From NCBI RefSeq assembly GCF_053078305.1, contig NZ_CP166879.1: a DNA stretch of 64,000 bases, one strand, 5' to 3'. Within the stretch, counting starts at the first letter, position 1, and each line of letters begins with the position of its first letter. The notes below the pieces were generated by a model, which ran no database searches, was not told where the DNA came from, and saw only the letters and a list, made by a program, of their open reading frames with translations. Positions 30,688-35,001 of the stretch are shown piece by piece. The position numbers were made by a program, and so were the translations under genes.

Positions 30688-32031
30688 TTAAATCACACCC
30701 TGCGCCAGCATCGCATCGGCAACCTTCACAAAACCGGCAATGTTCGCGCCCTGAACGTAGTTGGTTTGCTCACCTTCACCACCATGCTCAACACAGGCAT
30801 GGTGGATATCCAGCATGATGTGATGCAAACGTGCATCAACTTTCTCGGCTTTCCAGCCCAGGCGCGCAGCGTTTTGTGCCATTTCCAGGCCTGACGTTGC
30901 TACACCGCCAGCATTAGCCGCTTTACCCGGTGCAAACAGTACGCCTGCCTGCTGGAACAGTTCAGTCGCTTCGATGGTGGTCGGCATATTTGCCCCTTCG
31001 GCGACGGCTTTAACGCCATTAGCGATAAGCTGATGCGCGGCGTCAACATCCAGTTCGTTCTGGGTAGCGCAAGGCAGGGCGATATCAACCGGTACAGACC
31101 ACGGCTGTTGGCCTTCGAGATAGACCAGACCAAATTCTTTGGCGTAATCTGCCACTCGACCATCGCGGCTGGCTTTGATTTCGATAAGACGTGCCAGTTT
31201 CTCTTTCGTGAATCCGCTTTCATCAACTACAGTGCCGCTGGAGTCTGACGCAGTGATCACACGAGCACCAAATTCCATCGCTTTTTCGATAGCGTACTGG
31301 GCGACGTTGCCGGAGCCAGAAACGGAAACGCGCATCCCTTCAAAACCCATACCGTGGCGTTTTAGCATTGCTTCTGTGAAATAAACCAGACCGTAGCCGG
31401 TAGCTTCCGGGCGAATAAGACTGCCGCCAAATGAAAGGCCCTTACCGGTGAAGACGCAGGCGGTATTGTTGGAGAGCTTTTTCATCATCCCCGCCATAAA
31501 GCCGACTTCACGACCACCAACCCCGATATCACCTGCCGGAACGTCGGTATCCGCGCCCAGGTGGCGATACAGTTCAGTCATCAGCGCCTGGCAAAAACGC
31601 ATCACTTCACCTTCGCTTTTTCCTTTCGGATCGAAATCGCTGCCGCCTTTACCACCGCCCATCGGCAGAGTAGTCAGGGCATTTTTGAAGGTTTGTTCAA
31701 AGCCGAGGAATTTGAGAATGGAAAGGTTAACTGACGGATGGAAGCGCATACCGCCTTTGTACGGGCCGATGGCAGAGCTGAACTGCACACGCCATGCACG
31801 GTTGACCTGTACCTGATTGCGATCATCAACCCATACCACGCGAAACTGGATCACGCGCTCCGGTTCAACCAGACGCTCCAGTAATGACATCTGGCGATAT
31901 TTTGGATTTTGTTCAAGAAAAGGCCAGAGTGTGGTCATTACTTCACGAACGGCTTGCGCGAACTCGGTTTGATTCGGGTCGCGCTTTTGGACATGGTTGA
32001 GGAATGACTCCAGAGAATATGTCTGATCCAT
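30688..32031 (-). CDS. gdhA: NADP-specific glutamate dehydrogenase (447 aa)
   Basis: MDQTYSLESFLNHVQKRDPNQTEFAQAVREV...; 447 aa. Confidence 0.97.
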   Translation of the reverse strand: MDQTYSLESFLNHVQKRDPNQTEFAQAVREVMTTLWPFLEQNPKYRQMSLLERLVEPERVIQFRVVWVDDRNQVQVNRAWRVQFSSAIGPYKGGMRFHPSVNLSILKFLGFEQTFKNALTTLPMGGGKGGSDFDPKGKSEGEVMRFCQALMTELYRHLGADTDVPAGDIGVGGREVGFMAGMMKKLSNNTACVFTGKGLSFGGSLIRPEATGYGLVYFTEAMLKRHGMGFEGMRVSVSGSGNVAQYAIEKAMEFGARVITASDSSGTVVDESGFTKEKLARLIEIKASRDGRVADYAKEFGLVYLEGQQPWSVPVDIALPCATQNELDVDAAHQLIANGVKAVAEGANMPTTIEATELFQQAGVLFAPGKAANAGGVATSGLEMAQNAARLGWKAEKVDARLHHIMLDIHHACVEHGGEGEQTNYVQGANIAGFVKVADAMLAQGVI

Positions 32032-32266
32032 AGATATAAAACCCTTATATATTAATACGATTGTGCTTATGTTGTTTATGTGATGTGCTTTTGCAGTTTT
32101 CGACTATACCATCAAGAATGTGACGGTAAGCAAGAAAAAAATGACCCAGGAAAGCAAATTAATAACGAGAGTAATCTCATAACCAAATGCGATAACTCAG
32201 ACGCTAAAGTTTTGCCACCCGGCTACCGTTATCAGTAGCAGAGACAATAACGTTAAGGAGTTCCCT

Positions 32267-32539
32267 GTGAGTCGAGCATTGTTCGCCGTAGTATTAGCAT
32301 TTCCATTAATTGCACTGGCTAACCCGCATTATCGTCCGGACGTGGAGGTAAACGTACCGCCAGAAGTGTTCAGTTCAGGCGGGCAGTCAGCGCAGCCCTG
32401 TACTCAGTGCTGCGTTTATCAGGATAAAAATTATTCTGAAGGGGCGGTAATTAAAGCCGAAGGAATACTGCTGCAATGCCAGCGGGATGACAAAACCCTT
32501 AGCACTAATCCGCTGGTCTGGCGGCGCGTAAAGCCATAA
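32267..32539 (+). CDS. ynjH: DUF1496 secreted small protein YnjH (90 aa)
   Basis: 90-aa ORF with a signal peptide (MSRALFAVVLAFPLIALA); its 3' end overlaps nudG. Confidence 0.75.
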   Translation: MSRALFAVVLAFPLIALANPHYRPDVEVNVPPEVFSSGGQSAQPCTQCCVYQDKNYSEGAVIKAEGILLQCQRDDKTLSTNPLVWRRVKP

Positions 32540-32912
32540 ACGCCTCTAATAATGGAATGTCAGCAGGGGCCAGCGGATATTGCTGCGCCTCTTCAGGTGA
32601 GCACCAGACCAGCGCCTGATGTTCATGTGCCTGTAACGTCCCGTGGAAGTCGGGTACGTGCCAGGCATGAAGATGGATAATCCGGCCCGAAACTTCTCGC
32701 TGATGGCTGGCAACATACTCACCCACAGTTGCTTCGATGCCCAGTTCTTCGCGTAACTCACGCACCAGCGCCTGCCGCTGGCTTTCATCCGGCTCGACTT
32801 TACCACCGGCAAACTCCCATAATCCCGCCTGATCGCTCTGGGCGGGGCGTTGCGCGAGTAAAATTTTGCCATCACGTTCAATGATGGCGGCAACAACTTC
32901 AATCATTTTCAT
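32505..32912 (-). CDS. nudG: Nudix hydrolase NudG, CTP/8-oxo-dGTP pyrophosphohydrolase (135 aa)
   Basis: Nudix box GGKVEPDESQRQALVRELREELGIE present. Confidence 0.9.
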   Translation of the reverse strand: MKMIEVVAAIIERDGKILLAQRPAQSDQAGLWEFAGGKVEPDESQRQALVRELREELGIEATVGEYVASHQREVSGRIIHLHAWHVPDFHGTLQAHEHQALVWCSPEEAQQYPLAPADIPLLEAFMALRAARPAD

Positions 32913-32998
32913 AAATTACACACGGGCAGATAAGCGAAAAATGCCATAATATCCGCACTGTTGCTCAATCAGAAAGGCTTTATATTTAAGGAGTGCCT

Positions 32999-33619
32999 GT
33001 GCTAGACCGCCATCTTCATCCCCGGATTAAACCGTTGTTGCATCAGTGCGTGCGGGTTCTTGATAAACCGGGCATTACGCCAGATGGTTTAACATTAGTG
33101 GGATTTGCCATCGGCGTGCTGGCACTGCCGTTTCTGGCACTGGGCTGGTATCTGGCGGCGCTAATCGTCATTTTGTTGAACAGGCTGCTTGATGGTCTGG
33201 ATGGCGCACTGGCGCGGCGCAGAGGGCTTACCGACGCGGGCGGCTTTCTCGATATTTCTCTCGATTTTCTCTTTTACGCGCTGGTGCCGTTTGGTTTTAT
33301 TCTTGCTGCACCGGAGCAAAATGCGCTGGCAGGCGGCTGGCTGCTGTTTGCGTTTATCGGCACGGGTAGCAGTTTTCTAGCTTTTGCTGCGCTGGCGGCG
33401 AAACATCAGATTGATAATCCCGGTTATGCGCATAAATCGTTTTATTATCTGGGGGGATTAACCGAAGGCACAGAAACGATCTTACTGTTTGTGCTGGGAT
33501 GTTTATTCCCTGCATGGTTTGCGTGGTTTGCGTGGATCTTCGGTGCGTTGTGCTGGATGACGACCTTTACGCGGGTGTGGAGTGGGTATCTGACGCTGAA
33601 GTCGCTCCAGCGTCAGTAA
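32999..33619 (+). CDS. ynjF: CDP-alcohol phosphatidyltransferase family membrane protein YnjF (about 206 aa)
   Basis: GTG starts at 32993 and 32999 are both possible; contains DGLDGALAR, the CDP-alcohol transferase signature. Confidence 0.8.
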   Translation: MLDRHLHPRIKPLLHQCVRVLDKPGITPDGLTLVGFAIGVLALPFLALGWYLAALIVILLNRLLDGLDGALARRRGLTDAGGFLDISLDFLFYALVPFGFILAAPEQNALAGGWLLFAFIGTGSSFLAFAALAAKHQIDNPGYAHKSFYYLGGLTEGTETILLFVLGCLFPAWFAWFAWIFGALCWMTTFTRVWSGYLTLKSLQRQ

Positions 33620-33627
33620 TTGCAATG

Positions 33628-34935
33628 TTATTTGCTGCTGTCCGGGCCGCGTTCACCGGTTGCTACCGGATTTTTTGGATCGCTGCTCCATTCGTACCAG
33701 CCGCCGTCGTAAACGGAGACGTTATTCCAGCCCATTGCTCGTGCGTACATAAAGGTTTCGGACGCGCGCCAGCCGGTGCCGCAGTAGAATGAAACTTGCT
33801 GATCTGGTTTGATATTCCATGCTTTCCACATAGCGGTAATATCATCGGCGCTACGCATGGTGCCATCCGGATTATGGAAATCTTCCATATGCGTCGAGTC
33901 GCTACCAGCGTGTCCCCAACGTGCTCCGGCTATTTCACCTTTTGGTTTAATATAGCTGTAACCGCTGGTCGTACCGATAAATTCTGGCCACGAACGAATG
34001 CTCACCAGCGATGCATCCTGGCGATGCAGCAGTCCACGGGCCTGTTCCATATCGAGCATCAGTTGCGGTTGTGCCGGGATCTTCACGCCGAAATCCGGTT
34101 CCGCTTTCACTTTCGGTGGCGTTCCTCGCTCAACAGGCAGTCCCGCGTCGGACCAGGTTTGCCAGCCGCCATCCAGCAGGCGCACATCTTTCACGCCTGC
34201 ATACAGCATAATCTGCGCCACACGCGCTGCAGCGTATACGTCACGCCCGTACAGAATGACCGTGGTGTCATGGCGAATGCCGTGTTTTGCCAGCATCGCT
34301 TTTAGTTGTTCATCAGAAACTTTGTTCCACAGCGGTTCGCTTTCCACTTCGTTGGTATCGATGTAGTCAGCACCGGGAATATGGCTGATAAGGTAAAGCT
34401 TAGGAGCGCCCCAGGCCGCTTCAATGACTTTCCAGTCACCGGCAGGTTTCGCCGTAACCTCTTTACCTTGTTGCAGGTCATGCAGCCATTGCGGATAAAC
34501 CAGCTGCTCAAAATGCGGCAGTTTTTGCAGACGGGAAGGTTCGCTTAGCGCGTCACTCAGAATGGAGATATGCGTAAAACCTGCTTTTTGCAGTCGCGTT
34601 TTGACGGCGTCGACATCTTTGTCATTACCGTACAGCGCCACCGGGGCATCGGCTTTCAGGTTATGTTGCTTGATCCACTCGTTGAGCTGTTCGGTGCTCA
34701 TTTTGTCGAGCCAGTTAGCAGAGAGGTTTAAGGCGGCAGGTTCATGACCAGAAGGGCCATTTAAGGTTTGTGGCCAGCCGTTATAAAACGCGCTGGGGCG
34801 AGTATCTAGCGCTTTGCCATTTTGTTGTTGAAGCTGGTCAAGTGTAAGAGGCTTCGCCAGTTCAGCGGCCCACGAAGAAGCGCAAGCCAGCCCTAAAGCC
34901 ATTGCCAGCGCGGTCATTTGAGAAACACGTTTCAT
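33628..34935 (-). CDS. ynjE: Periplasmic three-domain rhodanese, thiosulfate sulfurtransferase YnjE (435 aa)
   Basis: Start at the ATG at 34935 (MKRVSQMTALAMALGLACASSWA signal peptide); CGTGWR rhodanese active-site motif. Confidence 0.9.
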   Translation of the reverse strand: MKRVSQMTALAMALGLACASSWAAELAKPLTLDQLQQQNGKALDTRPSAFYNGWPQTLNGPSGHEPAALNLSANWLDKMSTEQLNEWIKQHNLKADAPVALYGNDKDVDAVKTRLQKAGFTHISILSDALSEPSRLQKLPHFEQLVYPQWLHDLQQGKEVTAKPAGDWKVIEAAWGAPKLYLISHIPGADYIDTNEVESEPLWNKVSDEQLKAMLAKHGIRHDTTVILYGRDVYAAARVAQIMLYAGVKDVRLLDGGWQTWSDAGLPVERGTPPKVKAEPDFGVKIPAQPQLMLDMEQARGLLHRQDASLVSIRSWPEFIGTTSGYSYIKPKGEIAGARWGHAGSDSTHMEDFHNPDGTMRSADDITAMWKAWNIKPDQQVSFYCGTGWRASETFMYARAMGWNNVSVYDGGWYEWSSDPKNPVATGERGPDSSK

Positions 34936-35001
34936 CGAAAATCCCGACATTGTAGTTTTGAGTGCGCCATTCTGAACTGACGCATTGGGAAAAACTTTGC
35001 G

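Follow-up and report, generated by a model that had tools for sequence, protein, structure and literature searches.

The convergent genes ynjH and nudG lie tail to tail in the window, by which we mean the whole stretch of 64,000 nucleotides that was analysed (contig NZ_CP166879.1 of assembly GCF_053078305.1), a segment of the Escherichia coli chromosome in inverted orientation relative to K-12. On the plus strand, ynjH (32267..32539) begins with a GTG start codon and encodes 90 amino acids according to both the list of open reading frames and the RefSeq annotation. On the minus strand, nudG (32505..32912) encodes a Nudix hydrolase of 135 amino acids that is annotated as a CTP / 5-hydroxy-CTP diphosphatase. 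The pair is flanked by gdhA (30688..32031, minus strand) on the one side and by ynjF (32993..33619, plus strand) and ynjE (33628..34950, minus strand) on the other. The two coding sequences share 35 nt at their 3' ends on opposite strands (32505..32539), both stop codons included: the TAA of ynjH occupies 32537-32539 (plus strand), the TAG of nudG 32505-32507 (minus strand). This convergent overlap of 35 bp, first pointed out in an earlier note on the same DNA, is borne out by the list of open reading frames and by the RefSeq annotation of K-12, in which an identical 35-nt overlap is annotated (nudG 1841490..1841897, plus strand; ynjH 1841863..1842135, minus strand). The accompanying statement that the last 11 codons of each gene are shared is roughly right; the exact content, for each gene, is the stop codon, ten full sense codons (N81-P90 of ynjH, M126-D135 of nudG) and two bases of an eleventh. 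The frames are arranged in such a way that the first codon positions of the two genes face each other, and the second positions of ynjH lie opposite the third positions of nudG and vice versa.

The overlap as such is already known: apart from its annotation, one paper shows it as an example and another includes it in a catalogue. The "overlapping genes nudG and ynjH" served as a display example for strand-specific Ribo-seq data (GWIPS-viz 2018), and nudG-ynjH belongs to the 165 convergent excludons of E. coli that were detected in half or more of 58 MG1655 transcriptomes (ExcludonFinder, NAR 2025, PMC12288877). The 791-nt locus is present at a coverage of at least 80% in 5,418 of 5,426 complete E. 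coli genomes, and nudG and ynjH are both annotated in all 12 E. coli rows among the matches listed.

Both reading frames are genuine protein-coding sequences, as documented by their DUF1496 and NUDIX domains, the solved structure 2RRK, orthologues in 77-80 loci and the Ribo-seq example figure. YnjH has a signal-peptide-like N-terminus, followed by a DUF1496 domain (Pfam) that covers residues 33-89 of 90 (E=1.7e-24). In NudG the NUDIX domain (Pfam) covers residues 4-125 of 135. The structure of the 135-residue K-12 protein (PDB 2RRK) matches the protein of the window over its full length with one residue different, and alignments with other Nudix structures reach NudG residues ~122-127 at most. 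An AlphaFold2 model of NudG (31 orthologues) has a mean pLDDT of 92.9, with a C-terminal helix at residues 118-130 and values below 50 at residues 133-135. The last conserved columns in the alignment of NudG orthologues are P120, L121, L122 and A124. What the overlap encodes is the conserved end of DUF1496 on one strand, and the last helix turns and the floppy tail of NudG on the other.

Distribution and age of the pair

The comparison set comprised 80 loci encoding NudG relatives from a one-genome-per-species collection, and the length of each overlap was counted from the first in-frame stop codon. In 77 of these 80 Enterobacterales loci, nudG has the gene of a YnjH homologue as its tail-to-tail neighbour. 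All 61 Enterobacteriaceae-type loci with a ynjH match possess an overlap of 23-44 nt, and the overlap is not specific to a strain: the most frequent length is 41 nt (31 loci), followed by 35 nt (20 loci), with 26, 38 and 44 nt in three loci each and 23 nt in a single one. In the 18 loci from Serratia, Yersinia and Erwinia, the genes are separated by gaps of 4-100 nt (12 loci) or overlap by 8-12 nt (four), and no ynjH match was found in two. NudG is shorter in most loci of these three genera, with 130-133 aa in 15 of the 18.

The genes flanking the pair differ between genera on both sides. Among the fetched loci, ynjF abuts nudG only in Escherichia, and Citrobacter and several other genera possess an additional ORF of 189 aa between ynjF and nudG. 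A match to ynjF or ynjE was not found in the fetched flank of Salmonella and others, and gdhA is absent beside ynjH in Buttiauxella as well as in Serratia, Yersinia and Erwinia. Changed neighbours of nudG/ynjH can be seen at 1852-2421 of locus L010 and in loci L009, L020, L022 and others. Taken together, the near-universal synteny, the gaps or short overlaps in the outgroup and the fluid flanks indicate that the tight tail-to-tail pair is old, and they date the overlap of 23-44 nt to the base of the Enterobacteriaceae.

When measured from the conserved PLL motif of NudG and compared with Yersinia, the ynjH stop lies ~24 nt closer and NudG is ~5 residues longer. Reconstructed from these present-day sequences, a small deletion at the junction probably took out the spacer together with the old nudG stop. 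Following such a loss, a random antisense frame would remain open for 10 codons with a probability of ~(61/64)^10 = 0.6, and the length of the overlap is therefore unremarkable. The part that goes beyond chance, as judged from the compared loci, is its conservation across genera.

Convergent overlaps account for 7% of the well-characterised prokaryotic overlaps and typically originate by 3' extension after the loss of a stop codon (Palleja 2008, PMC2478687). The nudG/ynjH pair resembles this class in possessing two genuine coding sequences on opposite strands with common 3' ends (Rogozin 2002; Palleja 2008, PMC2478687). It is likewise similar to the cases in PMC2478687 in that one partner, here nudG, is extended into the other, in that its length lies below the 60-bp range dominated by artefacts, and in that it is kept in orthologues. 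However, long convergent overlaps have mostly been reported as kept in very close species only, and this one extends over many genera. It also differs in the tail of nudG, which is demonstrably unconstrained and ends earlier or later depending on a synonymous site of ynjH.

Two entries in the comparison set look like mislabelled or chimeric assemblies. Locus L037 is labelled Chryseobacterium, yet contains a typical Enterobacteriaceae nudG/ynjH/gdhA locus, and one 'Citrobacter' MAG contributes two nudG loci (L003 and L012), one of which is 97% identical to E. coli.

Constraint on the shared sequence

Column entropies over 57 orthologous sequences differ between the three codon positions. Within the overlap, position 1 of the ynjH codons (position 1 of nudG) has a mean entropy of 0.28 bits, compared to 0.66 elsewhere in ynjH and 0.52 elsewhere in nudG. 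The corresponding values are 0.18 bits at ynjH position 2 (nudG position 3; 0.51 and 1.40 elsewhere) and 0.88 bits at ynjH position 3 (nudG position 2; 1.32 and 0.39 elsewhere). Judged by these columns, the substitution pattern within the overlap is that of the ynjH frame. The protein sequences agree: the end of YnjH, STNPLVWRRVKP, is nearly invariant across orthologues, and the tail of NudG after LAPADIPLLEAFM varies freely (ALRAARPAD, ASRAARPAGL, SLRDATLKGSC, ASPAATSAGLFP) and shifts in its stop position. Beyond residue ~126, this tail is variable and partly disordered.

The most variable column in the region is 32506, with G in 22, T in 18, C in 11 and A in 6 of the 57 sequences. In ynjH, this base is the third of the Thr80 codon, where changes are synonymous; in nudG, it forms the middle of the stop codon. 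With a T, nudG ends at TAG and the overlap is 35 nt long; with G, C or A the codon is read as Ser, Trp or Leu, followed by Cys and TAA, which results in an overlap of 41 nt. The NudG proteins end in PAD in the former case and in PADSC, or with WC or LC in place of SC, in the latter. At the inner edge of the overlap (32534..32539), P90 and the stop codon of ynjH face F125/M126 of nudG. Any base at position 32536 would leave ynjH P90 unchanged, the site being four-fold degenerate, but 56 of the 57 sequences have an A there; the same base forms the middle of the NudG codon for Met/Ile126, which accounts for its conservation. Constraint by both proteins appears to be limited to these ~6 nt, and since a constraint by NudG is visible only at this edge, the rest of its tail would be carried along by ynjH.

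Two other explanations for the overlap and its conservation have to be weighed against these data. One frame might have been mis-called, or extended by sequencing or by a strain-specific stop loss, so that the overlap would be an artefact of annotation. Misannotated 3' extensions are indeed frequent in databases, where they account for 124 of the 178 overlaps longer than 60 bp (PMC2478687), but for nudG/ynjH this explanation has next to no chance of being correct. Both frames are intact in the 61 Enterobacteriaceae-type loci, the Pfam domain of YnjH reaches the last-but-one residue, the structure of NudG has been solved at full length, K-12 carries the same annotation as the 12 E. coli rows among the matches listed, and the pair serves as a Ribo-seq display example; an artefact is ruled out by the comparative data. 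Alternatively, the nucleotide conservation could really be due to a conserved structure in the shared stretch, for instance a hairpin acting as a bidirectional terminator, given that the overlap is far more conserved than the flanking nudG sequence. E. coli possesses an 11-nt perfect inverted repeat with arms at 32511-32521 (CGCTGGTCTGG) and 32604-32614 (CCAGACCAGCG), and a 9-nt perfect inverted repeat that has the left arm, located within the overlap, in common with it; the plus-strand fold of 32495-32630 has a z-score of -1.9. The 11-nt repeat, however, is explained by its coding content: each of its arms specifies the tripeptide Leu-Val-Trp, as part of PLVWRR in YnjH and, on the opposite strand, as part of QALVWCS in NudG. 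This repeat is limited to Escherichia and a few close relatives. Overall, 70.6% of cells are paired for the 11-nt repeat, and 76.4% for the other, and pairing decays beyond the close relatives, with broken stems in many lineages; no compensatory changes in the stems were found outside the close relatives of Escherichia. The minus-strand fold has a z-score of -0.6 only, a U-tract terminator is missing, as is a conserved GC-rich hairpin between an A-tract and a U-tract that would mark a bidirectional intrinsic terminator, and the Rfam 15 covariance models gave 0 matches at E<=1 over 31900-33200. Moreover, the three-base periodicity fits the coding constraint of ynjH, which accounts for the conservation. 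A structured element is thus extremely improbable as the cause, and a conserved hairpin in the overlap was rejected on the ground that the E. coli stems fail in other genera without compensatory changes.

Transcription across the pair

Transcription of ynjH starts from a sigma-28-type promoter at 32205..32239 (plus strand), which consists of TAAAGTTT (32205-32212), an N12 spacer, ACCGTTAT (32225-32232) and a start at C32239. This promoter scores 13/16 in the motif scan of the window and matches the sequence and start site of ynjHp in RegulonDB (reproduced in the supplement of PMC4183435). The gene belongs to the sigma-28 (FliA) regulon and its expression is FliA-dependent, with a fall of ~15-50 fold in delta-fliA (RNA-seq 29 vs 2, qRT-PCR 1 vs 0.02; PMC4183435), and the Salmonella homologue STM1300 is likewise transcribed by FliA. 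Roughly one half of the Enterobacteriaceae loci have a motif of at least 12/16 at the equivalent position, and in Serratia, Yersinia and Erwinia no consistent sigma-28 motif could be detected in the region upstream of ynjH.

When reverse-complemented, 32228-32255 gives the FliA motif printed for ynjH in Table 2 of Fitzgerald 2014 (TAACGTTATTGTCTCTGCTACTGATAAC), which is therefore on the other strand than ynjH and directed towards gdhA. The motif conserved across genera is the one on the ynjH strand, TAAAGTTT-N12-ACCGTTAT at 32205-32232. RegulonDB (supplement of PMC4183435) further contains "ynjFp6", a purely computational sigma-28 promoter with a start at ~32791 (plus strand), inside antisense nudG. 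An intragenic FliA site assigned to nudG was not found in the available parts of the text and supplements of PMC4183435.

Transcripts from both strands cover the shared stretch in vivo. Table S1c of Huang 2020, which holds one RPM value per strain, gives for the wild type 80.0 RPM for ynjH sense, 45.4 for nudG antisense, 9.0 for nudG sense and 2.7 for ynjH antisense. The values in the same order are 79.0, 29.2, 3.8 and 0.9 in rnc-14, and 27.4, 17.0, 5.6 and 2.5 in rnc-38. Together with the entry in ExcludonFinder (Table 1), the antisense reads confirm the proposal of the earlier note that transcripts of each gene are antisense to the 3' end of the other; the geometry described there is right, and even understated. 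If both proteins are to be full length, each mRNA must hold the 35 nt, so an arrangement in which both transcripts end before the overlap cannot apply to functional mRNAs.

The antisense signal is strongly asymmetric. The antisense to sense ratio of nudG is 5 in the wild type, the highest among the ~20 genes listed in the available part of the Huang 2020 table. At the read density of ynjH (0.29 RPM per nt), 45 RPM correspond to ~155 nt of nudG. If ynjH transcripts stopped at the stop codon, ~10-13 RPM of nudG antisense would be expected (assuming ~50-nt reads); the observed 45.4 RPM exceed this value, and ynjH transcription therefore runs well past the 35 nt. From this, we infer that the nudG antisense reads derive from ynjH read-through rather than from an internal promoter. 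Per kb, the Huang 2020 values amount to ~293 RPM for ynjH sense, ~111 RPM for nudG antisense and ~30 RPM for ynjF sense, which would fit either a read-through that decays with distance or a promoter of its own for ynjF. In Escherichia, nudG is located on the opposite strand between the codirectional genes ynjH and ynjF, as in a noncontiguous operon (Saenz-Lahoya 2019; ExcludonFinder Table 1 has three cases from E. coli), and the read-through could in principle reach ynjF. In contrast to such operons, nudG/ynjH is absent from the published list (ExcludonFinder Table 1) and ynjF directly adjoins nudG only in Escherichia. A noncontiguous operon ynjH-[nudG]-ynjF was rejected as the cause of the conserved pair because its geometry is confined to this genus.

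No intrinsic terminator was found near ynjH/nudG in the consensus scan, and a relaxed RNAfold scan yielded only weak and irregular candidates, none of them canonical. On the minus strand, an irregular hairpin of -8.9 kcal/mol followed by UUUUG is located immediately 3' of the nudG stop (32490-32533); on the plus strand, two hairpins and AAAATTTT are found near the 5' end of nudG (32826-32870). A C-rich, G-poor stretch on the plus strand (ynjH-sense, inside antisense nudG) at 32680..32840, with a GC skew of -0.27 to -0.39 in 80-nt windows, is a plausible candidate for a Rho entry site in ynjH read-through transcripts; upstream of it, neither the consensus nor the relaxed scan found an intrinsic terminator. 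In the available parts of the supplements of Adams 2021 (Term-seq) and SMRT-Cappable-seq 2018, neither gene is named. A second terminator-less convergent pair is located next door: ynjF (plus strand) and ynjE (minus strand) end 8 nt apart (33619-33628) and are also listed by ExcludonFinder. An intragenic sigma-54 binding site (IS23) was reported in ynjE (~33628-34950) in sense orientation by Bonocora 2015, and the nearest downstream gene on the same strand is nudG, 1,309 nt away.

Overlapping 3' ends are frequent in E. coli. Complementary 3' ends were described from 276 of 370 convergent operons (75%), with a mean overlap of 286 nt (Conway 2014, PMC4161252); such behaviour is therefore the norm, and an overlap alone is no sign of regulation. 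The nudG/ynjH pair is similar to other convergent units that lack an efficient terminator and have complementary 3' ends, for which collision-assisted or bidirectional termination has been described (Conway 2014, PMC4161252; Wang 2022, bioRxiv 10.1101/2022.10.23.513370). The collision model of Wang 2022, however, needs a stem-loop between the gene boundaries, and nudG/ynjH has neither intergenic space nor a conserved stem-loop. The pair also shares features with excludons (Sesto 2013; PMC12288877), namely neighbouring genes on opposite strands with overlapping transcripts, a place on the published E. coli list and one partner that dominates the antisense signal. Unlike classical excludons, which overlap in UTRs via a long transcript and have reciprocal expression, the coding sequences of nudG and ynjH themselves overlap, so that an overlap of the transcripts is unavoidable; neither reciprocal expression nor RNase III dependence is seen in the nudG/ynjH data, which comprise a single value per strain.

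The earlier note had suggested an RNase III-dependent co-degradation, in which the complementary 3' ends pair, the duplex is cleaved and both mRNAs are destabilised, and had proposed a comparison of abundance in an rnc mutant. RNase III-type short dsRNAs captured by p19 are present at nudG (34.7, 16.4, 7.4, 6.0, 7.6 and 26.5 RPM) and, in smaller amounts, at ynjH (0.8-12.9 RPM), and some duplex is therefore formed and cut. On the other hand, the p19 signal at nudG, with 6-35 RPM, is modest and differs from sample to sample, and the mRNAs do not behave as co-degradation would predict: relative to the wild type, nudG reaches 0.42x / 0.62x and ynjH 0.99x / 0.34x in the null mutants rnc-14 / rnc-38, that is, neither rises (Huang 2020, one value per strain). 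These data argue against RNase III co-degradation, and against the role of RNase III in the repression expected of an excludon, without disproving them. In addition, the pair appears in the all-gene tables of Huang 2020 but not in the available parts of its other supplement files, and convergent excludons were not validated by p19 data in ExcludonFinder (PMC12288877). We consider co-degradation very unlikely. A regulatory excludon would be a different case: the arrangement itself would have been selected, and sigma-28-driven transcription of ynjH would switch nudG down in motile cells through head-on collision of polymerases and/or antisense pairing, thereby tying the amount of NudG, a Nudix enzyme that cleans up nucleotides and (p)ppGpp, to the expression of the flagellar class-3 genes. 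This hypothesis is supported by the listing of the pair as a convergent excludon, by nudG antisense at five times sense when ynjH is expressed, by the conservation of the sigma-28 promoter of ynjH in many genera and in Salmonella, by the persistence of the pair while its flanks change, and by the lack of a terminator between the two genes. Less favourable to it are the absence of an anticorrelation over the three samples, with one value each (ynjH 80/79/27 vs nudG 9.0/3.8/5.6 RPM), and the loci of Serratia, Yersinia and Erwinia, in which the sigma-28 motif is undetectable upstream of ynjH and the pair is adjacent too. Furthermore, nudG is unmentioned in the available text and supplements of the delta-fliA study (PMC4183435), and overlapping 3' transcripts occur at 75% of convergent operons (PMC4161252). 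On balance, a selected regulatory arrangement appears rather unlikely.

Transcriptional interference between ynjH and nudG, the other consequence raised in the earlier note, may plausibly occur. Hydrolysis of both 5-hydroxy-CTP and (p)ppGpp has been reported for the Nudix enzyme NudG. In its most far-reaching form such interference would amount to a conserved, sigma-28-timed antisense switch, by which terminator-less ynjH transcription, on activation of the flagellar class-3 genes, sweeps nudG, lowers NudG and links motility to nucleotide/alarmone housekeeping. We regard such a switch as distinctly doubtful; if true, it might also be a confounding factor in the low-c-di-GMP phenotype described for ynjH mutants.

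Origin and meaning of the overlap

The explanation we favour, with a probability of roughly 0.6, is that the overlap is a conserved but essentially passive by-product of genome compaction: its sequence would be set by ynjH, and nudG would be covered incidentally by a sigma-28-driven ynjH transcript that lacks a terminator. The ancestral Enterobacteriaceae would have lost a few bases between the convergent nudG and ynjH together with the old nudG stop. The nudG frame would then have continued through the antisense of the conserved last ynjH codons until it met a chance stop. Selection in the shared stretch would act on ynjH, and NudG beyond residue ~126 would be a tolerated, partly disordered tail, the length of which flips between lineages with one synonymous ynjH base.

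The consequences for transcription would follow from the same compaction. With no room for a terminator and no convincing one present, each transcript would end inside the other gene, termination probably taking place via Rho and/or the collision of polymerases. The outcome is strongly asymmetric: with FliA active, ynjH transcripts run well into nudG as antisense RNA. The effect on nudG, if any, would most likely be a head-on transcriptional interference, and it would probably be small.

Several observations are less comfortable for compaction as a sufficient explanation. The adjacency of the two genes has been kept across three families despite changing flanks, which could mean selection for the arrangement, and excludon pairs in general have a higher synteny (ExcludonFinder, PMC12288877). 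The antisense to sense ratio of 5 at nudG leaves room for an effect on nudG output. Moreover, the origin of the nudG antisense reads, the 3' ends and the junction deletion are inferred or reconstructed.

The overlap points to no new mechanism and touches no long-standing question; its value is mainly practical. Knock-outs of ynjH or nudG must spare 32505-32539, and the primer of a published ynjH::thyA deletion ends inside the overlap. In a 2026 screen, mutations in ynjH were enriched among mutants with reduced c-di-GMP, and YnjH was linked to the RdcA/RdcB-DgcE system. Phenotypes of ynjH such as reduced c-di-GMP may be confounded, because the dominant antisense RNA over nudG disappears together with ynjH transcription. 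Beyond this, the locus provides a clean teaching example of how convergent overlaps evolve: ynjH determines the sequence, the tail of nudG is a free rider, and the place of the nudG stop depends on a base that is synonymous in ynjH.
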